Shown: positions 33,820-54,443, counted from the stretch's first letter. The stretch is DNA of 54,443 nt from Patescibacteria group bacterium (GCA_028288925.1 JAQGHG010000002.1:1-54443); one strand, 5' to 3'. The notes: a model not told the origin generated them from the letters alone. Translations and numbers: made by a program.

Positions 33820-34419
33820 ATGAGAAAAGTAGTAGCACTAGAGTTTCTATCGCTAGACGGCGTGATGCAGGCGCCGGGTGGCCCGGACGAGGACCGGTCG
33901 GGTGGGTTTAAGTTCGGCGGCTGGACGTTTCCTTACATGGACGATACTTCCGGTGAGGTCATGACCAAGCAGATGAGCCAGCCGTTTGATTTGCTGCTGG
34001 GCAAGAAGACGTATGAGATTTTTGCCGCCTACTGGCCCAAGCAGACCGGCGAGATCGGCAAGCTCTTCAATAAGGTCACCAAGTATGTGGTGGGCGAGGA
34101 TGTGGACGCGAGCTGGGAAAAGACGGTCGTGATCCAGGGCGACATGGTAGGGGAGCTGACGAAGCTGCGAGCGGGGGATGGCCCGATGCTGCAAGTGTAT
34201 GGCAGCGGCAATATGCTGCAGACGCTGCTCGAGCACGATCTGGTGGACGAGCTCTGGCTCAAGACCTTCCCGGTGACGCTCGGTAAGGGCAAGCGGCTAT
34301 TTGGCGAGGGAACGCGGCCGGCGGCGTGGAAACTGACGGAATCGATGGTGACGCCGGCCGGGGTGATCGTGGCGAATTATGTACGGGATGGGGAGGTGAG
34401 GACGGGGTCGGTTGAATAG
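33820..34419 (+). CDS. dihydrofolate reductase-family (RibD C-terminal domain) protein, paralogue
   Basis: 199 aa. ..LSLDGVMQAPGGPDED.., LLLGKKTYEIF, and VYGSGNMLQTLLEHDLVDELWLKTFPVTLGKGKRLF. Confidence 0.8.
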   Translation: MRKVVALEFLSLDGVMQAPGGPDEDRSGGFKFGGWTFPYMDDTSGEVMTKQMSQPFDLLLGKKTYEIFAAYWPKQTGEIGKLFNKVTKYVVGEDVDASWEKTVVIQGDMVGELTKLRAGDGPMLQVYGSGNMLQTLLEHDLVDELWLKTFPVTLGKGKRLFGEGTRPAAWKLTESMVTPAGVIVANYVRDGEVRTGSVE

Positions 34420-34507
34420 GGGTGATTGATGAGTTGTAGAGGTGAAAAGACGGCTCACTGGGGGTTTATAACGCAGGGTGATGTGGTAGCAGTCATCCGC
34501 TATACTT

Positions 34508-35212
34508 GTGTCTATGAACGAAGAGCAGGCTAAGACTTGGGTCAAGGATAAGACCAACCAGGACAAAGTGGTGGCTCAGTTCTTTGATGCCCATAAGCCT
34601 CTTAAGAATAAAGTTGCTCTCTTCATGGCTGGTATTCCAGGCGCCGGTAAGACCGAATTTAGTGATAATACCATTCGGGAATCGGCTCCAAGCTTCATAT
34701 CTATTGAGCATGACAAGCTCGTCGAATTTATTGATGGGTATACACCTGAAACGTACTATAACTATCGCAAAGCAGGCAGTGTGCTTGTTACGCGAATTTT
34801 TGATGAATGTTTAAAAAACGGGTACACGTTTGTTTTCGATGGAACGTTATCGAGTGAGAACGGTATTAGAAATATTAATAAATGCCTGAAGAAGGGTTAT
34901 CGAGCTATTATTGTTTATCTTGTTCAAGATGCACAAAAGGCTTGGGAACTCACACAAGCTCGTGAATTAGTAAAAAAGCGCTCAATTGAGCGAAAAGGAT
35001 TTCTCGAGACGTGCAATAAAATCAATGTTAATCTGCTTGAGATCTTTCAGGTACATAAGGACAATCCTAATTTTGAATTCTGGCTTATCAATAAGCAGGG
35101 TGAGCCAGATATGAAAAAAGCTACCGTGATTCTTCATACTCCTGAGCTGCGGAAAACTGAAGAAATAGAGTCCGCGCTGAAAATAGGCTATAATATTGAC
35201 ATAGGAAATTAG
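34508..35212 (+). CDS. zeta-toxin-like P-loop kinase
   Basis: 234 aa. Walker A GIPGAGKT, then FVFDGTLSS (compare the zeta/PezT IIEGT(L/F)R block). ATG 34514 lies 7 nt after TATACT (34501-34506), so the transcript is probably leaderless. Confidence 0.7.
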   Translation: MSMNEEQAKTWVKDKTNQDKVVAQFFDAHKPLKNKVALFMAGIPGAGKTEFSDNTIRESAPSFISIEHDKLVEFIDGYTPETYYNYRKAGSVLVTRIFDECLKNGYTFVFDGTLSSENGIRNINKCLKKGYRAIIVYLVQDAQKAWELTQARELVKKRSIERKGFLETCNKINVNLLEIFQVHKDNPNFEFWLINKQGEPDMKKATVILHTPELRKTEEIESALKIGYNIDIGN

Positions 35213-35214
35213 AT

Positions 35215-35376
35215 ATGGAGCTTAGTTTAACTCGAGAACAAAAGGATTATCTTAACGCGCACGGGCCTCTCAACGCCCCGACGCTTCAACGTGTCTATAA
35301 AAAATCGGTTGAGGATCAGCAGGAAATGCTGAAGCGGGCTGAGAAGATTCGAGATCAGCGAGCGAAGAAAAAGTAG
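35215..35376 (+). CDS. 53-aa hypothetical protein immediately downstream of the zeta-like gene
   Basis: ATG 35215 lies 2 nt after the zeta stop. Translation MELSLTREQKDYLNAHGPLNAPTLQRVYKKSVEDQQEMLKRAEKIRDQRAKKK, with TAG at 35374-35376. Below the ORF-track cut-off. Confidence 0.4.
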   Translation: MELSLTREQKDYLNAHGPLNAPTLQRVYKKSVEDQQEMLKRAEKIRDQRAKKK

Positions 35377-35396
35377 TTTACGCTAAAGTTGACCTT

Positions 35397-35423
35397 AAAA
35401 AAGACACCTACGATGTCTTTTTT
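35397..35423. terminator. bidirectional terminator between convergent island genes
   Basis: AAAAAAGACA-CCTACGA-TGTCTTTTTT forms a perfect 10-bp stem with A/T runs on both sides. Confidence 0.75.
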
Positions 35424-35445
35424 AAGCGGGTTTGCGGCGTGAGTA

Positions 35446-35964
35446 TTAATCGTTAAGGTGCGCGATAGCATAGTCCGCTTCGGCCGCAGCGAACTTTTCG
35501 CCGCTGGCAGACGTTAGCTGGTCGTGGATTGCGGCTGGCGACATGTTCATAGTACTTTGGTAGCTCTTTGCCTTGTTTAGGGCATTTGCGTTCCAGTCGG
35601 CCTTCATATTGTCGATTGCGTATTGTGCGGCTGCTGCTGAGAATTTCTCACCGTAATCTGAGGTCAGCTGGTCGTATACGCCTTGTTTGGACATGTGCAT
35701 CGTAGTGGCGTATGAAGCGGCTTTTGATAGTGCAGATTTGTACTCGGCAGGTATCTTAGGCTGCTCAGCCTTAGGAGTCGGCGTGGGTGTGGGCTTGGGG
35801 CTGGCGCTTGCAGATTGCTGGGTTGATGCGGTTTGAGCTGTACTCGTCTTTTTGTCGCCTCCGCCTAAAGCATTGCTAATCATGGCAAGCCCAATAAAGA
35901 TGAGTATCCCGGTCCACACCTTATGACGTTTAACCCAGCTCTTCTTTTCGGTTTCCTCAGCCAT
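35446..35964 (-). CDS. membrane-anchored protein with two Ltp-type (PF07553-like) repeats
   Basis: 172 aa. TM VWTGILIFIGLAMISNAL and a Pro/Thr linker. Two repeats follow: YKSALSKAASYATTMHMSKQGVYDQLTSDYGEKFSAAAAQYAIDNM and ALNKAKSYQSTMNMSPAAIHDQLTSASGEKFAAAEADYAIAHL. Confidence 0.75.
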   Translation of the reverse strand: MAEETEKKSWVKRHKVWTGILIFIGLAMISNALGGGDKKTSTAQTASTQQSASASPKPTPTPTPKAEQPKIPAEYKSALSKAASYATTMHMSKQGVYDQLTSDYGEKFSAAAAQYAIDNMKADWNANALNKAKSYQSTMNMSPAAIHDQLTSASGEKFAAAEADYAIAHLND

Positions 35965-36006
35965 TTTTACGCTCCTTCACATACTTATGCCAGTATCTTG
36001 CGGTAT

Positions 36007-36168
36007 TTAGTGCAGCTTGCCAAGGCTAAGCGTGATAGCAAGCACAAAGTAGCGCTTAGATGAGCGTGGGCGGTAGTAATGTAAACCCGCCCAAGCCTTG
36101 CCGATCCTGAACGTGCTCTGGACGCTGGTGACAACTTGCTTGGTCATGGGGAGCTGCTTTTGGGGCAT
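36007..36168 (-). pseudogene. possible remnant of an IS5/IS4-type DDE transposase C-terminus
   Basis: 53-codon ORF MPQKQLPMTKQVVTSVQSTFRIGKAWAGLHYYRPRSSKRYFVLAITLSLGKLH. It is reminiscent of the conserved transposase tail E..F..lK.wR.iatRYdK....f...v.La. No upstream catalytic part is present. Confidence 0.3.
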
Positions 36169-36234
36169 TATAGATCAGTGGGCGACTGCGGTTTGTAGGC
36201 TATAGGCAAGTAGGAGTCGTGCTATCTTAAAGTT

Positions 36235-37209
36235 ATGAGCTTCACTCAAGCGCAGTTATTCGCCAAAGTCTGGAATCATGATGGGAAGATATTCGATAAA
36301 GTTGCGCCAAAAGTCTGTATGTATGGAGGGGATTCATGTCGACCAGCTATTTGGTCCCACTCCCTAGGACAATCGAATTACCTTGATCCGATTTCCGAAG
36401 ACGGTCACGCAATACAGATTGTTCCGACTTCCAGGAGCTATCCGCCGGTCTTTGGGCCAGAAGCAATCGGTATGAGGCGGCTGTCTACCTTCTACGGATT
36501 TTGCCAAGAGCACGATTCTTCAATTTTTGATCTGATAGATCGACCCATTGATACATTTAACGCAGAATTTGCGTTTCTGTTCGCCTTTCGTAATGCGGCT
36601 CGCGAACTATGGTATGAGCAAACCGCCCTTAATTTCTTTAAATTTTCACTGAAAGATGATCCATCTGATGAGGTTAAGCCAGCGGTATTTTTATCAGGCA
36701 GGGCTCGTGTATTTTGGCTTCAGCAAGTTGTTAACCAATCAAAAATATGCAAAGACAGAGAAGAGATTTTTGCGAGGCTAAAACAGCTTTACGACAAGAG
36801 GGAATACACTTCCACTAAACACATCCTCTATTATATTCCGGTTGAGGTGCCGATTGTTTCGGCGGGCATACAACATTCGGCTGATATTTCTGCTGGGGCT
36901 GAAAATCTACGACTCCATGATTCTATGAGCTTTACTCTTTTCTCTCGGGATGGCTTTACATACATGATGCTTTCACATCTTGATGGTTCCGGGGATACAT
37001 TTGATTCACTTTGTAATACCGCCAACCAGGTTGATACGGGTATGTTTATGACTAATATGATCGCCGGTTTTGAGACAACTGTGGTACGACCATCATATTG
37101 GTTGAGTCTAGGCGAGGAAATTAGGAAAGAATTTATTGGGTTATGTCGGGCAAAAGCGATGCGAACTACGGATAAGCTTTTCCATAGCCCTCAACTAACT
37201 ATTTTTTGA
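36235..37209 (+). CDS. hypothetical protein with an N-terminal Cys/His cluster
   Basis: 324 aa, AT-rich codon usage. C-x6-C (CMYGGDSC), then WSHSLGQSNYL..DGH, then FYGFCQEHDSSIFDLID. No family name can be assigned from memory. Confidence 0.6.
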   Translation: MSFTQAQLFAKVWNHDGKIFDKVAPKVCMYGGDSCRPAIWSHSLGQSNYLDPISEDGHAIQIVPTSRSYPPVFGPEAIGMRRLSTFYGFCQEHDSSIFDLIDRPIDTFNAEFAFLFAFRNAARELWYEQTALNFFKFSLKDDPSDEVKPAVFLSGRARVFWLQQVVNQSKICKDREEIFARLKQLYDKREYTSTKHILYYIPVEVPIVSAGIQHSADISAGAENLRLHDSMSFTLFSRDGFTYMMLSHLDGSGDTFDSLCNTANQVDTGMFMTNMIAGFETTVVRPSYWLSLGEEIRKEFIGLCRAKAMRTTDKLFHSPQLTIF

Positions 37210-37286
37210 CCGGTAGGAGGTGTAGTCGACGTCGCTGGTGGGTATGTGCGGTATGTGGGCGGTTGATGAGGCAGACGTGAAACTTA

Positions 37287-38381
37287 TCAGTCTAGCGGCG
37301 GGAGTGTATTGTCGAGCCTTTGTGCATTAGAGCTGGCTAACACTCTCCCCACGGATGTTATTTGTATAGACTGGTCTTTTAGTAAGTTCCACCACTCACG
37401 AAGCTGTTGAAGATTTTGGTGTTCGTCGATCTTGTGCACAAACTCTTCTTTGGGTATGCTGCTGCCGTCATATAGATCATATATTTTGGTTAAGGCTTCC
37501 ATCTCTTTATTGGTAAGTGGTCTAGTATGCGAGGTTTTTCCATCTTTTGGATTAGTCATAGCCTGTAACCTGCTGATTGCCGATTTGTCCCTCACATCGA
37601 GCTTAAAATAATCCTCTGATGCTGAGCTTGCTATTAATATGGTTTGATCGAGCTTGCTGTCTTTTAATAACTTTTTTGCCTCGCTTAAAGCTTCAGAATC
37701 TTTAGGCATGCCGTTCTTAACGCAGCCGTCAAACATCTCGTACCAATAATCTTCTAATAGCTTAGTCCCCCCAAGAGAAGATATTCTTACTGAATCCAGG
37801 ATGTCCAAGTGGTCTAGCCACTCCGCACCGGTTGGTAGGTTGCCATCAAGTAATTTACCAAAAAGGCCGTCTAATGTTTTTAGACCGATGTCTATTTTTC
37901 CAGTTATCGGAACGAAGTTGCTTACCGCATGAAGTACCGTTAGCCCAAGCAGAGCTTCATCTGAGACTTGGTCAACAATTTCAACCGCCCGAGATATGCC
38001 AGCTCGAACACTTCTGTGGGCGCCTTTTTTGAAACGGTGCAACATGAGCTCTGCCAGTAGGTCATAGTCATGCTCGCGCTCCGTAGAGGCGGCACGTTTT
38101 TGAGCTTCCACTAATAAGATTTGAAACGATGGATCGGCGAACGCAGATAACGCACTTTCCTTGACCATTTTGCCTATCAGTTTACTGCCGAATTTTTCAC
38201 TTCTGCCTCTAGCAATGCTAGCAGCCTCTGCGGTGAAGTCATTCAACGCAAGCACCAATTTCTCATCAACAATTTCTCGCACTCTTTTTTCATTAATACC
38301 GACAACGAACGTCTCAACCTGTATTTGTTGAGCATTATTCCCGGCTTTTTGACTACTTTTGCCTGTCATTGATCTCGCCAA
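37287..38381 (-). CDS. LPO_1073/Vpar_1526-like (defence-island-associated) protein
   Basis: 364 aa. N-terminus ..SSQKAGNNAQQIQVETFVVGINEKRVREIVDEKL.. and AASTEREHDYDLLAELMLHRF..AVEIVDQVSDEALLGLTVLHAVS match my recollection of this family. TTG start, or ATG four codons later. Confidence 0.5.
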   Translation of the reverse strand: MARSMTGKSSQKAGNNAQQIQVETFVVGINEKRVREIVDEKLVLALNDFTAEAASIARGRSEKFGSKLIGKMVKESALSAFADPSFQILLVEAQKRAASTEREHDYDLLAELMLHRFKKGAHRSVRAGISRAVEIVDQVSDEALLGLTVLHAVSNFVPITGKIDIGLKTLDGLFGKLLDGNLPTGAEWLDHLDILDSVRISSLGGTKLLEDYWYEMFDGCVKNGMPKDSEALSEAKKLLKDSKLDQTILIASSASEDYFKLDVRDKSAISRLQAMTNPKDGKTSHTRPLTNKEMEALTKIYDLYDGSSIPKEEFVHKIDEHQNLQQLREWWNLLKDQSIQITSVGRVLASSNAQRLDNTLPPLD

Positions 38382-38541
38382 TCTGGATCTGGCTAGAGTT
38401 TTGTCCTGCTTTTTGTTTTTGGTTTATTGTCTTTCTAATACCAATTTTATATCCAGCAGTGCCACCAATTAATGCACCGATTAACACTGATATCATCGCG
38501 GCGCCAATACCGTCAAATGCCCACCTAAGAAATTCGTTCAT
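38353..38541 (-). CDS. 62-aa TM protein, possibly the detached N-terminus of 37287-38381
   Basis: TM GIGAAMISVLIGALIGGTAGY, then ..QKQKAGQNSSQIQIGEI.., which repeats the AG-N--QIQ motif of the downstream gene. The two ORFs overlap by 29 nt in frames offset by one, next to A5 runs. Confidence 0.45.
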   Translation of the reverse strand: MNEFLRWAFDGIGAAMISVLIGALIGGTAGYKIGIRKTINQKQKAGQNSSQIQIGEINDRQK

Positions 38542-46119: not shown

Positions 46120-46229
46120 TCGGCTGTTGGCTCCACAAGTGTTGTCTATATGATACCGCTTGTGGTTTGTAGGAACAAATGTCGTGCGATAGAGGGCGAA
46201 CGAGCAGCAAATATGCTAATATCCAGATA

Positions 46230-47162
46230 ATGCTTGTGGTTCCGAGATATAGTCATCGTTCGCACACCGGGCGGCTTACGCATCATCGCGATACGTCGTA
46301 TGCTTTGCTTGTGTTTTTGACATTGGGTGTGGGCGTACTGATGGGGAGCTTCTCGTGGGCTGCGCGCTCGGCTACCTCGGGGGGCGGGTCTTATGCGATA
46401 AGCGCGACGGTGCCGGGGCCGCGGCCGGCGAGTCCGGCCGTCATTACCTCGCCGTCTAATGGGCAAAGCTTTAGCACCAACCCCGTAACGGTATCGGGGA
46501 CGTGTCCGAGCAAGGCGCTTATTAAGATTTTTACTAACGGTATTTTGGCCGGAAGTGTTTTGTGCGAAAATGGGCGGTTTTCGATCCCGGTCGATCTGGT
46601 GATCGGCAAGAATGATCTGACGGCGCGGGCTTACAACGCGCTGGATCAGGAAGGCCCGAGCTCGCCGGCGGTGACGGTGACGCTGAATCAACCGCCGGGG
46701 GGTTATGGATTTTCGTCGGAGCTCATTATTCAGTCGGAGAATTATTACCGGGGGACACAGCCGGGCGAGGAAGTGGTGTGGCCGGTCGAGCTGGTGGGCG
46801 GCCAGGCGCCCTATGCGGTGAGTGTAGATTGGGGGGATGGGACATCGGATTTGATAACGCGATTGGCGCCGGGGCCGTTTACGGTGCGGCACACCTATAA
46901 GAAGGTTGGGGGGTATCTGGGGTCGTTTCCGCTGATAATCCGGGCGACGGACGCGGTGGGGCACACCGCGTATTTGCAGCTGACGACGATCGTGAACGCG
47001 GCGGTGGCGAGCAGTACGAATGCCAAGACTGTGGCTCAGCAATTTAATATTGTGTGGATTTGGCCGCTGTGGATCGTGGTGCTGCTGATGATTTTGTCGT
47101 TTTGGCTGGGGGAGCGGCGTGAGAAGAAAATTATGCAGCGCCAGATGGAGGCTTTGGCTTAA
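46230..47162 (+). CDS. membrane protein with Ig-like and PKD-like domains
   Basis: Start at ATG 46230. N-terminal TM/signal YALLVFLTLGVGVLMGSF and an Ig-like block (ITSPSNGQSFSTNPVTVSGTC). PKD signature VDWGDGTSD. C-terminal TM WIWPLWIVVLLMILSFWL. Confidence 0.7.
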   Translation: MLVVPRYSHRSHTGRLTHHRDTSYALLVFLTLGVGVLMGSFSWAARSATSGGGSYAISATVPGPRPASPAVITSPSNGQSFSTNPVTVSGTCPSKALIKIFTNGILAGSVLCENGRFSIPVDLVIGKNDLTARAYNALDQEGPSSPAVTVTLNQPPGGYGFSSELIIQSENYYRGTQPGEEVVWPVELVGGQAPYAVSVDWGDGTSDLITRLAPGPFTVRHTYKKVGGYLGSFPLIIRATDAVGHTAYLQLTTIVNAAVASSTNAKTVAQQFNIVWIWPLWIVVLLMILSFWLGERREKKIMQRQMEALA

Positions 47163-47818
47163 TGATTGAGCGATATGATCCTGAGCTTGAGGCAGCGGAA
47201 TGGACCGAGGGTGTGCCGGCGGTGGAGGCTGAGGCGCCGAGGCCGCGCAAGGCGCATTGGGCCGCCTGGACGTCTTCGATGGTGGCGGTCGGCGCGGTGT
47301 TGGGGCTGGTGATTATCGGCGGATTGAAGTTTGTGAGCGATCCGGTGGAGGCCAACGGCAAATCGCTTTCGCACGAGCAGGCTTCGGTGGCGCCGACGCC
47401 GTTTAAGCCGCCGACGAACCAGCTGGGGGCGCTTACATTTACATTTTCGTATCCGGGTGAGTTTGACCAAGTGGCACAGTCCAAGAACTCGTCGCGGGCG
47501 CTGGAGCAGTATATGCTGGGATCGAAGGCGAATTACCGGCACTCGATCGCGGTAGAGGTAAACCCGCTGGTGGCCGGCGGCTTGTCGGGGGATTCGAGCT
47601 ACCGCACGCGGCAGATTCATCCGGCCGACTACCGCGAGACGCAGGAGCAGATTGGGGGAGATTTGGTGGCGACGATGACCAAGGTGGATAAGCAAGAACA
47701 GGCGATGTTTTGGGTGCATGGCGACAAGGTGTTGACGGTGGCCATTACGAGCTCGGACGCGAAAGACGATGTGGCGGCGTTCATGGCGCTCATTAAGAAA
47801 TCCGTGAGGTGGCATTGA
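47162..47818 (+). CDS. hypothetical single-pass membrane protein
   Basis: 218 aa. The start overlaps the upstream stop (TAATG). TM MVAVGAVLGLVIIGGL followed by an exported alpha/beta domain. The stop overlaps the next start (TGATG). Confidence 0.6.
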   Translation: MIERYDPELEAAEWTEGVPAVEAEAPRPRKAHWAAWTSSMVAVGAVLGLVIIGGLKFVSDPVEANGKSLSHEQASVAPTPFKPPTNQLGALTFTFSYPGEFDQVAQSKNSSRALEQYMLGSKANYRHSIAVEVNPLVAGGLSGDSSYRTRQIHPADYRETQEQIGGDLVATMTKVDKQEQAMFWVHGDKVLTVAITSSDAKDDVAAFMALIKKSVRWH

Positions 47819-48864
47819 TGAAACTGTGGACTCTAGTAGCGGCGGGTTTTTTGTTGGCGAGCCAGCCGGCGAGTAATAATTTTCAGCTCAATTCGTATGG
47901 CTTTGGGTCGGGCGGGACGGCCAACTCGAGCTCGAGCAATTACCGGGTGAACGGGATCGCGGGGGAGCAGGCGGGGAGCGCGAGCTCGGCGCATTATGGC
48001 GTGAAGGCCGGCGAGACGCATGTAAAGGAAGCCAACGTTCCGACGATCGCGATCACGAACGACGACAACTGGTACAACAAGTTGAAGGTGGTGATTGGAG
48101 CGCAGAATAATCCGAGCGATGCGAAGTTCGCGGTGGCGATCTCGACCGATAACTTCGTGACGACACAGTACGTGAAGAGCGATCTGACGATCAGCCCGAC
48201 CTTGGCTTTCGCGGATTATCAGACGTACGCGAGCTGGGGGAGCGCCACGGGGGTACTGATTCGCGGCTTGAGCCGTAGCACGGTGTACACGGTGAAGGCC
48301 AAGGCGTGGCGGGGGAAGTTTACGGAGAGCGGGTGGGGACCGACGTCGAACGCTACCACGGTGGACCCGCAGCTGGCCTTCGACATCGATGTGTCGGCGA
48401 CGGATACTAATACGAACCCGCCGTTCCAGATCGACTTCGGCACGCTGCTGGCGAGCACGGTGACGAACTCGCCAACGAAGGTCTGGGTGGACCTGGACAC
48501 GAACGGCGAGTCGGGGGGCAAGGTGTACTTGAGCGGCCAGAACGCGGGGCTCAAGAGCCTGGCGGGGGCGCATACCATCGCGGCGCTGTCGGGCGACTTG
48601 TCGGCGCAGCCGGAGGGTTTCGGCGCGCAGGGTTCGAGCGCTACGCAGGGCTCGGGCGGGCCGTTCACGCTGACCGCGCCCTACAACGTGTCGGGGACCA
48701 ATGTGGGCGTGGCCGACGCGACGATCCGGGAGATCTTCGGCGCGCCGGGGCCGGTGGTGGCCGGCCGGGGATCGTTCCTGCTCAAGGCCAAGACTCAGCC
48801 GCTAACGCCGGCCTCGGGTGACTACACGGAGCTGCTGACGGCGATCGCGAGCGCGAGTTTTTGA
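47818..48864 (+). CDS. secreted protein: FN3-like module plus the C-terminal beta domain shared with 49034 and 50335
   Basis: ATG 47818 (MKLWTLVAAGFLLASQPAS..). FN3-like end STVYTVKAKAWRGKFTESGWGP. C-terminal half LAFDIDV...FQIDFGTL...VWVDLDTNGESGGKVYL... ends in GDYTELLTAIASASF. Confidence 0.7.
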   Translation: MKLWTLVAAGFLLASQPASNNFQLNSYGFGSGGTANSSSSNYRVNGIAGEQAGSASSAHYGVKAGETHVKEANVPTIAITNDDNWYNKLKVVIGAQNNPSDAKFAVAISTDNFVTTQYVKSDLTISPTLAFADYQTYASWGSATGVLIRGLSRSTVYTVKAKAWRGKFTESGWGPTSNATTVDPQLAFDIDVSATDTNTNPPFQIDFGTLLASTVTNSPTKVWVDLDTNGESGGKVYLSGQNAGLKSLAGAHTIAALSGDLSAQPEGFGAQGSSATQGSGGPFTLTAPYNVSGTNVGVADATIREIFGAPGPVVAGRGSFLLKAKTQPLTPASGDYTELLTAIASASF

Positions 48865-48945
48865 AGAAGAAGACAGGGTATCGTGGCAAGTTGCCCGTCC
48901 TAGAAAGCAAAATAGCGTTGTGGAAAAGAAACGTTGTAAATAGTG

Positions 48946-48975
48946 TTGACAGCCACCAGGGACATCGGATAAGCT
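48946..48975 (+). promoter_or_regulatory. candidate promoter of surface subunit A
   Basis: TTGACA (48946-48951), an 18-nt spacer, then TAAGCT (48970-48975), within a 169-nt A-rich spacer. Confidence 0.45.
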
Positions 48976-49033
48976 AACCGTAAGTAGTTTCAAAAGAAAA
49001 GCGCACAAATAGCGCGGATAAACAACAAACCAA

Positions 49034-50167
49034 ATGAACAAACCAAAAATCAAATTAATAATCGCAGCCGTTGCCGCCCTAGTGGCAGAAGTTGTTGCAC
49101 CCACACTCTCGGGTGTGGCTAATGCTGCCCCGCCGCAGTTTACCCAGGCGTGGGTGCGGCCGGATACCCACAAGGCTTTGACGCTGACGGGTGTGATGAT
49201 TTGCGCCACGCCTTCGGCCGCCACGACGGGTGTGACTGAATCGCTGGTGAAGATCACCTTCCCGACAGATGCCGGAGCGACAGACTTCGCGGTGAACGCG
49301 ACCGCCAGCAACTGGACGGTAGACACGACTAACATACCCGCGACGGCGACTGCTTGGCCTAGCATTGCCACGGCGACAGCCGTGAGCGGTCATACCGTGA
49401 CATTTCCATCGGGCGATTTGACGGCGGCAACTCAGTATTGCTTCCATACCGCCGCGCGGTTGACCAACGGTACTGCTGTAACCTCAACTCAGATCACGGG
49501 CGCCACCTTAATTACTTATGATAGCGCTGGCACGCCCGCTCCGGTCAACCGGACCAACTGGTCGACGGCGGTCATTACCGACGACACGATCACGGTGAGC
49601 GCGGTGGTGCCACCAAACTTCACCATTACCCTGACGGGAAACGCTGATACGTTTACGACCAACCTCGACCCGACCGCGATCATCAGTACCACGGGGATAG
49701 ACGTGGGCGTGAACACCAACGCGGTGGGCGGATGGATTGCCTGGATAAAGAGCATAAACGCCGGCCTGACATCGGCGGCAGCGGGCTACACGATCGCATC
49801 GGGCCTGAAGAACACGTCGCTCACCCAGACTAAGTTTGTAGGAAACCCGGCTTTTGACCTGATAGTGGGACAAGAGGGTTACGTAGTGGACGTGGATCTT
49901 AAGACGCAGGGACCGAACAGCGTGGGAGCCGGTGGTTGTGTGGACCACATTGACGCCGCCTACAACAGCGGTAGTGGTGTCGGTGGCGGTGTCTTGGACA
50001 CTAACTTCCAGCCCATCAACGCTTGTACTCGCGACTGGGCACCGAAGCCGGGAACTTCCGACGGCGATGTCTTGACCCTCGTTGAGCGCGCTACGATCCG
50101 CGGTGGTACACCGGCCGGTTCGGACTACTCCGACATCATCACGGTGGTGGGCGCGGGTAACTTCTAG
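49034..50167 (+). CDS. secreted two-domain surface subunit A (distant WxL-like C-terminal domain?)
   Basis: 377 aa. Signal peptide MNKPKIKLIIAAVAALVAEVVAPTLSGVANA|AP. Paralogue of 50335-51435. C-terminal domain ITDDTITVSAVVPPNFTITLTGNADTF..LDP..VNTNAVGGWIAWIKS...SDYSDIITVVGAGNF. Confidence 0.75.
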   Translation: MNKPKIKLIIAAVAALVAEVVAPTLSGVANAAPPQFTQAWVRPDTHKALTLTGVMICATPSAATTGVTESLVKITFPTDAGATDFAVNATASNWTVDTTNIPATATAWPSIATATAVSGHTVTFPSGDLTAATQYCFHTAARLTNGTAVTSTQITGATLITYDSAGTPAPVNRTNWSTAVITDDTITVSAVVPPNFTITLTGNADTFTTNLDPTAIISTTGIDVGVNTNAVGGWIAWIKSINAGLTSAAAGYTIASGLKNTSLTQTKFVGNPAFDLIVGQEGYVVDVDLKTQGPNSVGAGGCVDHIDAAYNSGSGVGGGVLDTNFQPINACTRDWAPKPGTSDGDVLTLVERATIRGGTPAGSDYSDIITVVGAGNF

Positions 50168-50173
50168 ACCCGC

Positions 50174-50221
50174 AGCCTCTCTTGAGAGAGGCTCCTCCCG
50201 GGGACAAATCCCCGAGAGGAG
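50174..50221 (+). terminator. two adjacent hairpins after subunit A gene (terminator/attenuator candidate)
   Basis: AGCCTCTC-TTGA-GAGAGGCT (50174-50193) is perfect. CTCCTCCCGGGGA-CAAA-TCCCCGAGAGGAG (about 50192-50221) has one mismatch. No T-tract follows. Confidence 0.45.
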
Positions 50222-50277
50222 CTCCGCTCCAACAATAACCCAAAAACAAAAGTACCGGTTTGCGATATGTCAAGATA

Positions 50278-50306
50278 TTGCATGCTTCTTATGCTTCAGA
50301 TACACT
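50278..50306 (+). promoter_or_regulatory. candidate promoter of surface subunit B
   Basis: TTGCAT (50278-50283), a 17-nt spacer, then TACACT (50301-50306). GGAG lies 5 nt before ATG 50335. Confidence 0.45.
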
Positions 50307-50334
50307 AGTGTTTAGTTAGTGTTATGGAGTTTTA

Positions 50335-51435
50335 ATGCACCGATCTCGTCGGCGTCTGTCATATCGGGTTATTGTTGTAGCAGCGTTGATCTTGAGCGCC
50401 GTTATGCCTTTCGTTCCAACCGGAGCGCATGCTGGGTTCCAGCAGGCATATGTGCGTTTGGACCGCATGAAGGCGAACACCGCCACGGGCGGATTGGTCT
50501 GCGCCAAGCCTAATACCGTGGGAACGGAGGCGAAAGTGCTCGTGACGTTCCCGTCGACCTATACCCTCAACACCACCGCGGCCAACTGGACGGTGAGCGC
50601 GGGCGCCACGGAAATTCCGGCCGGCTCGACGGCTTGGCCGACCATTGCCACGGCCAGCTCCGCCGACAACACGACTAAGGTGGTAACATTTGCCGGGGGC
50701 GACCTGACGGTAGGGACGTTGTACTGCTTCGTCTTCGCGGCCGTCAACACGCTTACGACAGCGGCAGCGGCGGCGAATAGCCAGCAGGCTAGTGTCCAAA
50801 CTCAGACTTCCGGCAGTGCGGTGGTAGACTCCACGCAGATTGCGCTCTCGAACGTGACCGATGATACCATTACGGTGACGGCTGTAGTTCCTCCGTCGTT
50901 TATCTTTGCTCTCAGCGGCAATGCCGATACGTTCGCCGGTAACCTTGACCCGTTGAATGTTGTTTCTACGGCGGGCGTGGTCGCTACGGTTACTACCAAT
51001 GCCAAGGGTGGATGGATCGCATGGGCCAAGGACTCACAGCAGGGGCTGTACTCGGCCAATACCGGCTATACCCTTAGTACGGTGGGTACTAAGACGGGTA
51101 CTTACGCGAATGGTACACCGGACGGCGTGACTTCGACGCTTGTGGCCGGCACCGAGGGCTATGTGCTGGATGTGGATGCTACATTGGACGCCACCGGCGG
51201 CTGTACCTTCGGATCTCCTTATGGTATCGCGGCCGAGTATGATGGGAACACGGCTTTTAAGGGTGGAAGCTTGATGGGCAACTACCAGCAGATAGCGTCT
51301 TGTTCCGGGACCTCGCCGGCTACGGCCAACGGCGACCAGATCACCCTGGTGGAGCGCGCGGCGATTTCGGGAGCGACTCCGGCGAGTTCGGACTACTCCG
51401 ACATTATCACCGTAGTGGGCGCTGGTAATTTTTAA
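50335..51435 (+). CDS. secreted two-domain surface subunit B (paralogue of 49034-50167)
   Basis: 366 aa. Signal peptide ..VIVVAALILSAVMPFVPTGAHA|GF. Blocks shared with subunit A: F.QA.VR.D..KA, ANWTV, TAWPTIATA, TDDTITVTAVVPPSF, GNADTF, TNAKGGWIAWAKD, EGYVLDVD and SDYSDIITVVGAGNF. Confidence 0.75.
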   Translation: MHRSRRRLSYRVIVVAALILSAVMPFVPTGAHAGFQQAYVRLDRMKANTATGGLVCAKPNTVGTEAKVLVTFPSTYTLNTTAANWTVSAGATEIPAGSTAWPTIATASSADNTTKVVTFAGGDLTVGTLYCFVFAAVNTLTTAAAAANSQQASVQTQTSGSAVVDSTQIALSNVTDDTITVTAVVPPSFIFALSGNADTFAGNLDPLNVVSTAGVVATVTTNAKGGWIAWAKDSQQGLYSANTGYTLSTVGTKTGTYANGTPDGVTSTLVAGTEGYVLDVDATLDATGGCTFGSPYGIAAEYDGNTAFKGGSLMGNYQQIASCSGTSPATANGDQITLVERAAISGATPASSDYSDIITVVGAGNF

Positions 51436-51447
51436 CCTGAGATTGTT

Positions 51448-52506
51448 ATGAAGCGATTGTTCCTAGGTCTGATGGTTTTGGCGGTGGTGTTTGGCAACGT
51501 GATAGTGGCGCCGGGAGCGTTCGCGGCCGATGCCAAGCCGCTTACCCTGCAGACTTCGCCGTTGCCGATTAGCTTGAGCGCCGATCCGGGCAAGTCGGTG
51601 ACGACTGATTTGCGTATAAAGCAGAATGGCGGCGACACCGAGAAGTTGAAAGTGTCGCTGATGAAGTTTGGCGCCTACGGCGAAGAGGGCAAGCCTGTGC
51701 TCACCGACCGGGGCCCGGCGGATACGTATTTTGACTGGGTGAAGTTTGATAAGACGGTGTTTGACGCGCCGGCCAATGTGTGGCAGACGGTACACATGAC
51801 GATTAACCTGCCGAAATCGGCGGCCTTCGGGTATTACTACGCGGTGGTGTTTTCGCGCGTGGGCGACGATGTGAGGCAGGGCGGCCGCACCAACTCGCTG
51901 AGTGGCGCGACGGCGGTGTTGGTACTACTAGAGGCGCACAATCCCAATGCTAAACGTTCGCTGCAGTTGAGCTCGTTTGCGACGGAGCATCGGATCTATG
52001 AGTTTTTGCCGGCGAAGTTTAGGGTGAAGCTGGCGAATACGGGCAATGTGCATGGAGCGCCGCAGGGCGATATATTCATCATGAAGGGTAAGAAGCAGAT
52101 CGCTACGCTGAGCTTGAACTCGGGCGGCGGTAACATCTTGCCACAGTCTAAGCGGTCTTTTCCGGCGGCGTGGTCGGATGGTTTCCCGGTCTATGATACG
52201 GTGCAAGAGGATGGCAAGACGAAGCTGGACAAGAACGGCAAGCCCGTACAGAAGCTCAAATGGGACTGGACGCAGGCCAATAAATTCCGGTTTGGGAAAT
52301 ATACGGCGCAGCTCTTCGCGGTGTATGACGACGGCAAGCATGATGTGCCGATCGAAGCACAGGTGTCGTTTTGGGTGATTCCGTGGCGGTTCCTCTTGGT
52401 GCTACTGCTGGTGCTGACGCTGGTCGGATTCGGGGTATACTCGACGGTGCGAGGGACGGTGCGCGGTGTGAGCCGGGGGACGCGGCGGCTAAAGGGCCGG
52501 AGGTAG
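51448..52506 (+). CDS. DUF916/DUF3324-like (WxL-interacting-protein-like) membrane-anchored surface protein 1
   Basis: 352 aa. Signal peptide MKRLFLGLMVLAVVFGNVIVAPGAFA|AD. First beta module (..SADPGKSVTTDLRIKQNGGDTEKLKVSL...WQTVHMTINLPKSAAFGYYYAVVF). Second beta module (..FRVKLANTGNVHG..FRFGKYTAQLFAVYDDG..). C-terminal TM WRFLLVLLLVLTLVGFGVY plus a basic tail. Confidence 0.65.
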   Translation: MKRLFLGLMVLAVVFGNVIVAPGAFAADAKPLTLQTSPLPISLSADPGKSVTTDLRIKQNGGDTEKLKVSLMKFGAYGEEGKPVLTDRGPADTYFDWVKFDKTVFDAPANVWQTVHMTINLPKSAAFGYYYAVVFSRVGDDVRQGGRTNSLSGATAVLVLLEAHNPNAKRSLQLSSFATEHRIYEFLPAKFRVKLANTGNVHGAPQGDIFIMKGKKQIATLSLNSGGGNILPQSKRSFPAAWSDGFPVYDTVQEDGKTKLDKNGKPVQKLKWDWTQANKFRFGKYTAQLFAVYDDGKHDVPIEAQVSFWVIPWRFLLVLLLVLTLVGFGVYSTVRGTVRGVSRGTRRLKGRR

Positions 52507-52511
52507 GTTTG

Positions 52512-53435
52512 GTGCGGCGGGGGATGGCCCTGGCAGTACTGATAGTGCTAGCCTTGGGATGGTTCCGGATGGGGGAAGCGGCGCGGGGCACGGGGTTTGT
52601 GGTGTCGCCGGCTTTCCAGGAAGTGCGGGTGCCGGCGGACAAGGCCGAGGTGCCATACGCGCTGCAGATCACCAATCGCAACGCGGCGGATCAGAACTTT
52701 CGCTTGAGCGTGGTGGACTTCGGTGCGTTGGACGAAGAGGGCGGTGTGGCATTCTTGGGCACGCCTTCGAGCGAGCTGGAGCACAAATACGGCTTGGCTT
52801 CGTGGGTGCGGCTAGAGAAGGACGCGCTGTTTGTGCCGGCGGGGAAGTCGGTGAAGCTGGACATTACGATCATGAACCGGGCGTCGCTGGCGCCGGGTGG
52901 GCATTATGGCGCGGTGCTAGCTACGGCCGTGACGGACACGGGCCAGGCGGTGGAGAATAGTGTGGGCGTGAAGCAGGTGGTGTCGTCGTTGGTGTTGGCG
53001 GTCAAAGATGGTGGGGCTGATCCGAAGCTCAAGCTAGTGGGGCAGACGTCGGACGCGGCGTTTTGGCATTTGCCGAGCCGGGTGGAGCAGCGTTATCAGA
53101 ACTTGGGCAATGTGCACGTGGCGCCGCGAGGAGTAGTGGCGGTGCAGGACCCGGCCGGGCGCGTGGTGGCGCGGGTAGCGATTAATGAGGGTAGCGGGGC
53201 GATTTTGCCGGAGAGTTTCCGGCGCTACAAAGCTACGCTGATGCCGGTGGCGGCGGCTTGGATGCCGGGCCGGTACCGGATCGTGAGCACGTACCGGTAT
53301 GACGGGACAGATAAGACGCTGGTGTATACAACGATGTTTTGGTACGTGGGCGCCGTGGTGGTATGGCTGGTGGGATTGCTGGCGCTGGCGGCCGCGGGGC
53401 TGCTGGGATGGTGGTTGTGGCGCCGGCGCCGGTAA
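52512..53435 (+). CDS. DUF916/DUF3324-like membrane-anchored surface protein 2 (paralogue)
   Basis: GTG 52512 lies 9 nt after GGAGG (alternatives are TTG 52509 and ATG 52524). ..FVVSPAFQEVRVPADKAEVPYALQITNRNAADQNFRLSVVDF...SVKLDITIMNRASLAPGGHYGAVLATAV.. C-terminal TM VVVWLVGLLALAAAGLLGWWLW plus RRRR. Confidence 0.6.
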   Translation: MRRGMALAVLIVLALGWFRMGEAARGTGFVVSPAFQEVRVPADKAEVPYALQITNRNAADQNFRLSVVDFGALDEEGGVAFLGTPSSELEHKYGLASWVRLEKDALFVPAGKSVKLDITIMNRASLAPGGHYGAVLATAVTDTGQAVENSVGVKQVVSSLVLAVKDGGADPKLKLVGQTSDAAFWHLPSRVEQRYQNLGNVHVAPRGVVAVQDPAGRVVARVAINEGSGAILPESFRRYKATLMPVAAAWMPGRYRIVSTYRYDGTDKTLVYTTMFWYVGAVVVWLVGLLALAAAGLLGWWLWRRRR

Positions 53436-53440
53436 GCGGC

Positions 53441-54172
53441 TTATTTGCCTTTGATCGCGTAGCCGCCGTCGACCAGGATATCCGTGCCGGTGATGTAGCC
53501 GGCTTCGGTGGAGGCTAGGAATAATATCATGCCGGCGATTTCTTCCGGCTGGGCTATGCGGCCGGCGATAGTGCCTTGCTTGATTCGCTCGTAGGTGTCG
53601 GGCGACCAATCGGTGGCCATGTCGGTTTCGACGTAGCCGGGCGAAACGCTGTTGAACCGTACTTTGGGGTAGGCTTTTGCCAGCGCTTTGGTAATGGCGA
53701 TGACGCTCGTTTTGCTGGCCGCGTAGGTAAGGCTGCTAAGGGTTGCGAGATTGGCGTGGCCTTTGATTGAGGCGACGTTTATGACACTGCAATTTTCTCG
53801 TTTGAGCATGCCTGGTAGGACGGCCTGGATGCAGTGTAACGTGCCGAGCACGTTGACGGAATATTCCTCGAGGGCGTGCTCGTCGGTCACATCGGAGATG
53901 TCTTTGAGGCCGGCGTGCCCCATGCCGGCGTTGTTTACGAGGACATCTATGGGGCCGAGCTTGGCTATCGCCTGATGGGTGGCTGGTCGGTCTGAGATGT
54001 CGAAGACGGTCTTGGTGGAGCCGGGGATTTCTTGGTGCGTTTGGTTGAGTTCTTTTGAGTCGGTGCGGCCGTGGATAATGACGTTGTAGCCCTTGGCGGC
54101 GGCGTTTTGGGCAATGACTTTGCCTATGCCGCGGCTGGAGCCGGTGATGAGTATGGTTTGGGGTGAATTCAT
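53441..54172 (-). CDS. SDR-family oxidoreductase
   Basis: Start at ATG 54172 (MNSPQTILITGSSRGIGKVIA..). TGxxxGIG cofactor motif, NNAG, and the catalytic Y-x3-K (YAASKTSV). Confidence 0.88.
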   Translation of the reverse strand: MNSPQTILITGSSRGIGKVIAQNAAAKGYNVIIHGRTDSKELNQTHQEIPGSTKTVFDISDRPATHQAIAKLGPIDVLVNNAGMGHAGLKDISDVTDEHALEEYSVNVLGTLHCIQAVLPGMLKRENCSVINVASIKGHANLATLSSLTYAASKTSVIAITKALAKAYPKVRFNSVSPGYVETDMATDWSPDTYERIKQGTIAGRIAQPEEIAGMILFLASTEAGYITGTDILVDGGYAIKGK

Positions 54173-54216
54173 AGCTTCAGTATACCTTACGCGTTCGGGT
54201 GGTATGGAGAGTGAAC

Positions 54217-54295
54217 TATATGTCGTCAAACGATATATAGGGTTGTAGAATCCGGGCTTAGTTAGAAGATTATATACATCGTTTGACGACATATA
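54217..54295. repeat. 18-bp perfect inverted repeat upstream of the SDR gene (operator or structured element)
   Basis: TATATGTCGTCAAACGAT (54217-54234) and ATCGTTTGACGACATATA (54278-54295) are exact reverse complements separated by 43 nt, lying 45-120 nt upstream of the SDR start. Confidence 0.6.
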
Positions 54296-54443
54296 CGCAG
54301 TGGGTAGTTGGGGTCTGGGCGGAGCAGTATTAGGCCTCAATTCTAGATACAAAACCCTTGTGCTTGGAAGGCAAAACGCCTATGCTAGTAGTGTAACTAT
54401 GTGATGGAGTTGCGGATCTCTAGTCGTCTCACTACGAGTCGAA

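Follow-up and report, generated by a model that had tools for sequence, protein, structure and literature searches.

The window analysed here is a 54,443-nt stretch of DNA from a Patescibacteria group bacterium (GCA_028288925.1 JAQGHG010000002.1:1-54443). The locus under study is a run of plus-strand genes that includes three genes for secreted proteins, designated A, B and C after the gene starts at 47818, 49034 and 50335, followed by two genes for membrane-anchored proteins, D (51448) and E (52512). A first-pass annotation, made from the sequence alone, had tentatively read these five genes as a strongly diverged and undescribed version of the Csc/WxL surface complexes of Lactobacillales and Enterococcus. 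The analysis below instead points to a candidate operon for a pilus of the Pam type, a thin, adhesive filament newly described in ultrasmall bacteria of the Candidate Phyla Radiation (CPR), and to a remote relationship between its anchored proteins and those of the WxL clusters.

Work on the five genes themselves upheld much of the initial description. All five consecutive open reading frames (ORFs) are present (Table 1), with a GTG at 47809 as a possible alternative start for A, and hydrophobic, signal-like N-termini occur in all five products. The nearly identical C-termini of the secreted proteins are likewise real, since A ends in GDYTELLTAIASASF while B and C both end in SDYSDIITVVGAGNF. 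B and C are paralogous from end to end (45% identity over the full length, E 1e-79). The C-terminal halves of A and B share 26% identity (E 9e-6), and at the family level the hhalign comparison of A residues 180–348 with B residues 190–377 reached a probability of 98.8% (E 6.5e-17), in keeping with a C-terminal half shared by all three. D and E form a second paralogous pair (25% identity, E 3e-15; 99.9% by family-level hhalign), and both show the signal-like segment, hydrophobic C-terminal helix and Arg/Lys tail that had been ascribed to them. The two beta-rich modules proposed for each anchored protein are matched, in the AlphaFold2 model of D, by two beta domains followed by a long C-terminal helix.

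The locus is also larger than was first reported, extending upstream through a gene for a 218-aa membrane protein to one for an RbmA-like protein, PamR. The PamR gene overlaps the 218-aa gene by 1 nt, as does the latter the gene for A, an arrangement consistent with translational coupling. Gaps of about 168 nt precede both B and C, while C and D are separated by 12 nt and D and E by just 5 nt.

Table 1. Features of the candidate pilus locus and its immediate surroundings (positions counted from the first nucleotide of the window; TM, transmembrane; Ig, immunoglobulin)
Feature	Position	Strand	Remarks
Conserved divergent neighbour, 370 aa	45007-46119	-	Pro-rich N-terminus, one TM segment (~84-110), beta-rich C-terminal part
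PamR, RbmA-like pilus base/anchor (proposed)	46179-47162	+	NCBIfam NF058578 CPR_pilus_PamR
218-aa protein	47162-47818	+	One N-terminal TM segment (~33-60); kept at the same position in 27 related loci
Subunit A, proposed tip, 348 aa	47818-48864	+	Signal peptide; PamT-like N-terminus; middle domain; acceptor C-terminal domain
Pilin B, proposed shaft subunit, 377 aa, 38.2 kDa	49034-50167	+	Signal peptide 1-31; beta-sandwich 38-175; linker; acceptor domain 196-377
Proposed donor strand of B	49571-49618	+	Inter-domain linker, residues 180-195, VITDDTITVSAVVPP; alternating hydrophobics I186, V188, A190, V192
C-terminal strand of B	50123-50164	+	Residues 364-377, DYSDIITVVGAGNF; second most conserved 12-mer in family
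Two adjacent GC-rich hairpins, no U-tract	50172-50217	+	Directly after pilin gene B; RNA fold of 50165-50235, dG -32.5 kcal/mol
Pilin C, proposed second shaft subunit, 366 aa	50335-51435	+	B paralogue: same architecture, four Cys, linker and C-terminal motifs
Chaperone-like protein D, 352 aa, pI 9.9	51448-52506	+	Signal peptide, two Ig-like domains, TM helix ~308-333, Arg/Lys tail
Chaperone-like protein E, 307 aa, pI 9.8	52512-53435	+	GTG start; D paralogue; signal peptide, two Ig-like domains, TM helix ~272-300, basic tail

The architecture of B is central to the interpretation of the locus. An AlphaFold2 model built from a 114-sequence alignment (mean pLDDT, the predicted local distance difference test score, 92.4) consists of two beta-sandwiches with an unstructured segment, residues 182–195, between them. 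When the full-length model was searched with Foldseek, it retrieved only generic two-domain Ig-like adhesins together with the CFA/I pilin CfaB (probability 1.0, template modelling score of about 0.45 on the target). All members of the family have Cys57 and Cys136, and at least 90% of them keep Cys302 and Cys331; by their positions these residues would give one cysteine pair per domain. The three most conserved 12-mers of the family are TNAVGGWIAWIK (residues 228–239, the strand carrying GGWIAW), the C-terminal strand (364–375) and the linker DDTITVSAVVPP (183–194). Residues V192 and P193 of the linker are invariant, and a donor-strand motif defined as [IVLYFM]x[IVL]xAx[VI][PNA][GPA], for which shuffled sequences give an expectation of at most 0.03 per protein, occurs in the linker of 111 of the 114 pilins. 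Within the C-terminal strand, D364, Y365, A374, G375 and F377 are invariant across the pilin family, and among pilin orthologues the terminal Phe, in the motif [VI][GA]AG.F, is found in 89 of 96. By analogy with the F strand of chaperone-usher pilins, this strand is proposed to line an acceptor groove. The earlier suggestion that conserved strands serve as assembly elements fits in its general form, but the donated element proposed here is the inter-domain linker and not the C-terminal strand. Relatives carry one or two such pilin genes per locus.

Subunit A shares the acceptor domain of the pilins, its residues 180–348 being homologous to their C-terminal domain, and it has a different N-terminal half. 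A hydrophobic donor-linker motif is present in only 4 of 68 A-type proteins, at no consistent position. The N-terminal segment (residues 20–73) is rich in Gly, Ser and Asn and resembles PamT, the tip subunit of the Pam pilus. In fact, 51 of the 68 A orthologues match the NCBIfam PamT model at E ≤ 0.01, the best at E 2.8e-10, although none of the reported E-values comes near that needed for the 240-bit cut-off of the model. Between this segment and the acceptor domain lies a conserved middle domain of about 105 aa (approximately residues 75–180), which may be FN3-like (fibronectin type III) judging by its sequence pattern. Three degenerate repeats of the form S-x-N-[YF]-x-[LV]-x...G were also observed in residues 21–73 (47878–48036), reading NNFQLNSYGFGSGG, SNYRVNGIAGEQAG and SAHYGVKAGE; this repeat region is the sole part of A in common with NCBIfam PamT.

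The PamR gene links the locus to a named system. Its product scored 305.4 bits against NF058578, above the cut-off of 300, over residues 40–324, and it also matched the Ig-like Pfam domain Glucodextran_B at E 1e-6. A signal or TM segment occupies residues 39–62, followed by Ig/FnIII-like domains and a C-terminal TM helix (287–312); the true start codon is probably downstream of 46179. Moreover, the mature N-terminus carries the donor-strand motif YAISATVPG (residues 72–80), and such a motif directly follows the signal peptide in 17 of 25 PamR orthologues, against a shuffled expectation of 0.008.

The Pam pilus was described in the Saccharimonadia parasite Ca. Mycosynbacter amalyticus (Troman et al., bioRxiv 10.64898/2026.03.03.709456). 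Cryo-electron microscopy (cryo-EM) of its filaments revealed two-domain pilins, PamA and PamB, each of which donates its inter-domain strand to the neighbouring subunit, whose Ig-like C-terminal domain is open, and the linker and the C-terminal domain site are the most conserved parts of those pilins too (bioRxiv 10.64898/2026.03.03.709456). Other products of the pam operon are PamE, which is a third pilin; PamT, a tip subunit that has a single domain and lacks the donor linker; and PamC and PamD, FimC/PapD-like chaperones that each carry a TM helix at the C-terminus (bioRxiv 10.64898/2026.03.03.709456). The RbmA-like PamR is predicted to terminate and anchor the fibre by means of its N-terminal strand, and the order of assembly was derived from AlphaFold complexes (bioRxiv 10.64898/2026.03.03.709456). 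Genes for ATP synthase, CorB and major facilitator superfamily (MFS) proteins tend to lie in the neighbourhood, as a tendency and not a definition (bioRxiv 10.64898/2026.03.03.709456).

Considering these parallels, the locus is most probably a Pam-type pilus operon, encoding a chaperone-assisted, usher-less, donor-strand-exchange filament in an uncultured, GC-rich member of the Saccharimonadia. Both hosts belong to the Saccharimonadia, the locus includes a PamR equivalog, and the N-terminus of A resembles that of PamT. As regards architecture, pilins of about 38 kDa combine a beta-sandwich N-terminal domain, a conserved linker and an open Ig-like C-terminal domain with paired cysteines, and two paralogous chaperones of FimC/PapD-like fold carry a C-terminal TM helix, with no usher or other dedicated assembly machine. 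The kinship of B and C to PamA, PamB and PamE, and of D and E to PamC and PamD, is deduced from architecture, gene context, PamR and the PamT-like N-terminus, the Pam proteins being compared by their published description. With a PamR equivalog adjacent, a PamT-like N-terminus in A and an architecture matching that of the preprint, the earlier view of an undescribed system can no longer be held.

Assembly could proceed as follows. Sec would export all components, whose signal peptides are seen in the sequence, and the membrane-anchored, two-Ig-domain proteins D and E would capture each subunit, an F1-G1-like hairpin strand filling the open groove of its C-terminal domain. A, with an acceptor domain and no hydrophobic donor linker, would start the fibre as the tip. 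B and C would then be added successively, the linker [IV]x[VI]SAxVPP of each entering the groove of the previous subunit beside its C-terminal strand ending in F. Finally, PamR would cap the base and tie the fibre to the membrane, using the donor motif at its mature N-terminus and its C-terminal TM helix. No usher, sortase or ATPase would be involved. The distribution of elements suits these roles, since A has only an acceptor, as expected for a tip, B and C have both donor and acceptor, as expected for a shaft, and PamR has a donor and a TM helix, as expected for a base. The order so proposed agrees with the assembly order of the Pam preprint; polymerisation, subunit order and strand donation by the chaperones are all inferences here.

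Several observations weigh against this assignment. The match of A to the PamT model (NF058579) is weak, reaching 31 bits against the cut-off of 240 and covering residues 5–73 only, and at 348 aa the protein has the extra conserved middle domain, which is absent from the single-domain PamT as described. NCBIfam scans of 114 members of the pilin family and 119 of the D family matched none of the Pam models apart from PamR and PamT, nor any other meaningful family. Sequence and family-profile searches of the PDB gave nothing; the Pam entries 25PZ and 25QA did not appear in them and have probably yet to be released. The gene order here is PamR-X-A-B-C-D-E, where X is the 218-aa gene, whereas the M. 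amalyticus genes are interleaved, judging from accession order. There is no 55-kDa PamA-like pilin, but rather two PamB-sized paralogues, and these have two cysteine pairs where PamB is reported to have three. The neighbours also differ, being adk-map-ftsA-ftsZ ... ileS-ftsW-rplU in place of ATP synthase, CorB and MFS genes.

The two anchored proteins add a second connection. The AlphaFold2 model of D (mean pLDDT 90.9) has a low-confidence loop (residues 138–154) between strands 128–137 and 155–163, and in the model this loop with its flanking strands resembles the F1-G1 hairpin of chaperone-usher chaperones. The best Foldseek matches of the model in the PDB were the Enterococcus faecium WxLIP structures 9i1y and 9i25 (E 2.5e-10 to 6e-10), and the chaperones CfaA, CsuC, YadV and CupB2 came next (E 1e-9 to 1e-6). 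WxLIPs are the anchored DUF916/DUF3324 proteins of the WxL clusters, and of the two proteins it is E that lies closest to them. None of the five window proteins matched Pfam, including the WxL, DUF916 and DUF3324 families, at E ≤ 1. At the family level, PF06030 (WxLIP_PGBD) was matched by 33 of 68 E orthologues at E ≤ 0.1 and by 66 of 144 diverse E-family representatives at E ≤ 0.01, and a 42%-identical homologue (P0354) carries a precomputed PF06030 match. PF11797 (WxLIP_HBD) was absent among the families matched, and no PF06030 match clearly reached the gathering score.

For profile comparison, genuine WxL clusters were taken from metagenomes by the WxLIP motif NQIDKxxxYFDLK, the WxLIPs were verified with Pfam, and the neighbouring small and large WxL proteins were collected. 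The E family aligned with WxLIP by hhalign at a probability of 97.0–97.1% (E ~6e-11) over 237 columns spanning both domains, and the 144 diverse E representatives did so at 96.8%. The closest 119 sequences of the D family reached 38%, significance being obtained only with the more diverse E family. Column-shuffled or reversed WxLIP controls gave at most 1.4%, and other beta-rich families from the locus at most 4.2%. D and E are thus, at the family level, remote homologues of WxLIP (DUF916/DUF3324). The DUF916/DUF3324-like character first proposed for the anchored partners is therefore borne out by hhalign, by the family's PF06030 matches and by Foldseek, though D and E of the window itself show no Pfam match of their own. 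As a side observation, one D-type homologue (L115 561-2006) bears a basic, Lys/Ser/Pro-rich cytoplasmic tail of about 130 aa, much longer than the Arg/Lys tail in the window.

The secreted subunits gave the opposite outcome. PF13731 (WxL) was matched neither by the three secreted window proteins (E ≤ 1) nor by any of the 114 pilin-family members, and hhalign comparison with genuine small and large WxL domains stayed below a probability of 5% in every setting, whether full-length proteins or the C-terminal domain only were used, with the small as with the large WxL set, after the alignments had been enlarged, and in relaxed as well as global mode. The 50 Foldseek matches listed for the pilin B model did not include the WxL chain of 9i25. 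The assignment of the secreted proteins to the WxL type therefore fails. By eye, GGWIAW could be set beside turn-GWxL, and the C-terminal YxxxΦT beside YxxxΦTWxL; these echoes are colinear and non-significant, and with all hhalign probabilities against WxL below 5% they do not count as evidence. The first-pass annotation was right that the canonical WxL motifs cannot be recognised, none being detectable in A, B, C or their families, and also that LPXTG proteins and sortases are lacking, as none of the window's ORFs has an LPXTG-like C-terminus and no sortase was found among the window proteins scanned.

It is conceivable that the locus encodes a non-filamentous surface complex of the WxL/Csc type, in which one-to-one strand complementation by D and E would keep A, B and C at the cell surface, giving an adhesion platform and no polymer. 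The WxLIP homology of D and E speaks for such a complex, as does a cluster layout resembling that of WxL loci, where one shorter secreted subunit (348 aa) and two longer ones (366–377 aa) that share a C-terminal domain sit beside anchored partners. In fact, the parallels with the Csc/WxL clusters of Lactobacillales, Enterococcus and Listeria run further. The layout of D and E is that of WxLIP, with a signal peptide, a pair of Ig-like domains, a TM helix and a basic tail. The secreted partners have a C-terminal domain in common, which one strand of the anchored protein is predicted to complete, and both hosts are monoderms. The differences are nevertheless substantial. There are no WxL motifs and no PF13731 signal, D and E of the window fall below Pfam thresholds, an LPXTG protein (frequent in Csc/WxL clusters, not obligatory) is lacking, and the phylum is CPR rather than Bacillota. 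The linker matches the acceptor domain in conservation and is found again at the PamR N-terminus, a pattern that would have no role in a one-to-one complex and that implies polymerisation, which has not been described for WxL proteins. Proteins of such architecture form filaments in M. amalyticus, as seen by cryo-EM, and PamR is the equivalog of a pilus component. A non-filamentous complex is accordingly considered unlikely. Of the Csc/WxL reading, what stands is that the partners are WxLIP-like and that the idea of an attachment fibre in a monoderm fits; what does not stand is the WxL identity of the subunits, and the closest known system is Pam.

A further alternative is one of the classical pili, be it chaperone-usher, sortase-dependent or type IV, or else an S-layer. 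The resemblance of the D fold to chaperone-usher chaperones, and the weak resemblance of pilin B to CfaB, would favour the first of these. Likenesses to the Pap/Fim, CFA/I and Csu pili include an incomplete Ig-like acceptor that would be completed by a strand of a two-domain chaperone and then by that of the next subunit, a tip without a donor strand, a terminator with one, a conserved C-terminal strand, and Foldseek matches to CfaA, CsuC and CfaB. However, no usher-sized beta-barrel gene was found in or beside the operon or encoded in the module of relatives, the host is a monoderm CPR bacterium without an outer membrane, the chaperones are membrane-anchored, the proposed donor is an inter-domain linker and not an N-terminal extension, and the pilins have an extra N-terminal domain. 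The similarity is one of fold, with essentially no sequence-level signal. Among the domains of PapD-family periplasmic chaperones (PF00345/PF02753), PapD_N was matched by just 1 of 68 E orthologues (E 8.6e-4) and was not among the families matched by the 144 representatives at E ≤ 0.01, as against 33 to 66 members with PF06030, and hhalign of the D family with FimC gave 1.2%, a weak control as a single FimC sequence was used. The lack of a sortase and of LPXTG sequences argues against a sortase-dependent pilus, and no type IV pilin-like N-termini were seen among those of the subunits. The subunits are abundant, acidic and beta-rich, as S-layer proteins are, but a Pfam scan found no SLH or other S-layer anchoring domain. 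Any of these identities must be regarded as highly improbable, and a Pam-type pilus remains the preferred interpretation.

Co-conservation of the gene set in relatives had been put forward as a check on the locus, and the order A, pilin(s), D, E does recur in nearly all of 84 related loci; the five genes are kept together in some 80 genomes of the Saccharimonadia. These are mostly labelled as Saccharimonadia or other Patescibacteria. Several contigs bearing the module are labelled Bdellovibrionales, Gammaproteobacteria, Burkholderiaceae, Limnocylindria or Fimivivens, and such labels are probably taxonomic mis-assignments or reflect mis-binned contigs. In the closer relatives, the genes ahead of the module are ileS, ftsW and rplU and those for the divergent membrane protein of 370 aa, for PamR and for the 218-aa protein, and in the window the flanking genes run adk, map, ftsA, ftsZ ... 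ileS, ftsW, rplU. At least 397 homologues of B and at least 1208 of D were found; those of B, D and E whose source is named are labelled Saccharimonadia/Saccharibacteria, and none has a functional name. A profile of the E family retrieved 6370 cluster representatives at E ≤ 1e-3 and 797 at E ≤ 1e-30, among 1.84 billion. M. amalyticus itself was not among the 79 loci returned by a scan of genome contigs.

Two neighbouring proteins kept in relatives deserve mention. The product of the divergent gene upstream of PamR had no Pfam or NCBIfam match, and 23 related loci have its orthologue in synteny beside PamR. Its counterpart in the Pam preprint may be the "tail fibre-like" neighbour, and its membership of the system is uncertain. 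The 218-aa, single-TM protein likewise matched no Pfam or NCBIfam family, and it may be an unrecognised component of the pilus system. On the downstream side, a giant protein of 1900–2971 aa with no Pfam match directly follows the second chaperone in several relatives (L001-L005, L017), possibly as a surface adhesin that belongs with the pilus module. The gene after E in the window is instead a minus-strand one for a short-chain dehydrogenase (53441–54352), after which the window ends.

How the operon is transcribed was addressed by motif scans. An individual σ70-like promoter had been claimed for each subunit gene, and this was not borne out. A consensus scan found 6 sites where 3.7 ± 1.7 were expected, none of them upstream of A or C, and the site nearest B falls inside the start of that gene. 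Neither the σ70 promoter scan nor that for intrinsic terminators rose above shuffled expectation. Two strong hairpins do exist, as had been reported, but they follow B and not A. They are candidates for an attenuator or an mRNA-stabilising element by which the B:C ratio, and with it the pilin stoichiometry, would be set.

Elsewhere in the window, the interval 34000–38400 has a GC content of 0.45–0.48, compared with about 0.59 in the remainder, and it is probably a horizontally acquired islet. It holds genes for a zeta-toxin/AAA_33 protein (34508–35212) and for an Ltp "host cell surface-exposed lipoprotein" (35446–35964, minus strand), as well as two ORFs without a family match (36235–37209 and, on the minus strand, 37287–38381). 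GC skew is positive in every 2-kb interval (+0.06 to +0.30), and no tRNA genes occur in the 54 kb.

The connection between Pam pili and WxLIP would join two surface systems apparently not brought together before. Published work on WxLIP predicts that a hairpin strand of this protein completes the beta-sandwich of WxL. This is strand complementation, although the WxLIP papers draw no comparison with chaperone-usher pili, and the Pam preprint for its part never mentions WxL or DUF916. In the literature that could be searched, which is incomplete, no publication among those listed tied WxL to donor strands or chaperone-usher systems, or DUF916/DUF3324 to CPR bacteria. The link therefore appears new, allowing for a published statement elsewhere.

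One could go further and suppose that the CPR Pam pilus and the Csc/WxL clusters of Firmicutes are divergent descendants of one ancient monoderm surface-assembly system, a possibility that we regard as tentative and rather doubtful. The ancestral system would have consisted of a membrane-anchored, two-Ig-domain chaperone and secreted subunits in which a donated strand completed an unfinished C-terminal domain. As to the chaperones, the homology of PamC/D-type proteins with WxLIP is supported here at the level of sequence profiles. The subunit half of the proposal, in which the Pam acceptor domain may be the counterpart of the WxL domain, is undetectable by sequence. If common descent were true, the WxL proteins of lactobacilli, enterococci and Listeria could assemble by donor-strand exchange and might polymerise, and the chaperones of chaperone-usher pili would have monoderm relatives.

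The identification of Pam pili dates only from 2026 and concerns a single cultured CPR parasite, in which first contact with the host cell has been proposed as their function. The compact form PamR-X-tip-pilin-pilin-chaperone-chaperone recurs in many Saccharimonadia, and annotation resources currently name only its PamR. Its assembly logic can be read from sequence, with an acceptor in the tip, donor and acceptor in the shaft, and a donor with a TM helix in the anchor. Finally, the WxLIP link bears on the origin of Pam pili, which the preprint left open, and it gives testable predictions for the poorly understood WxL clusters that function in adhesion and virulence.

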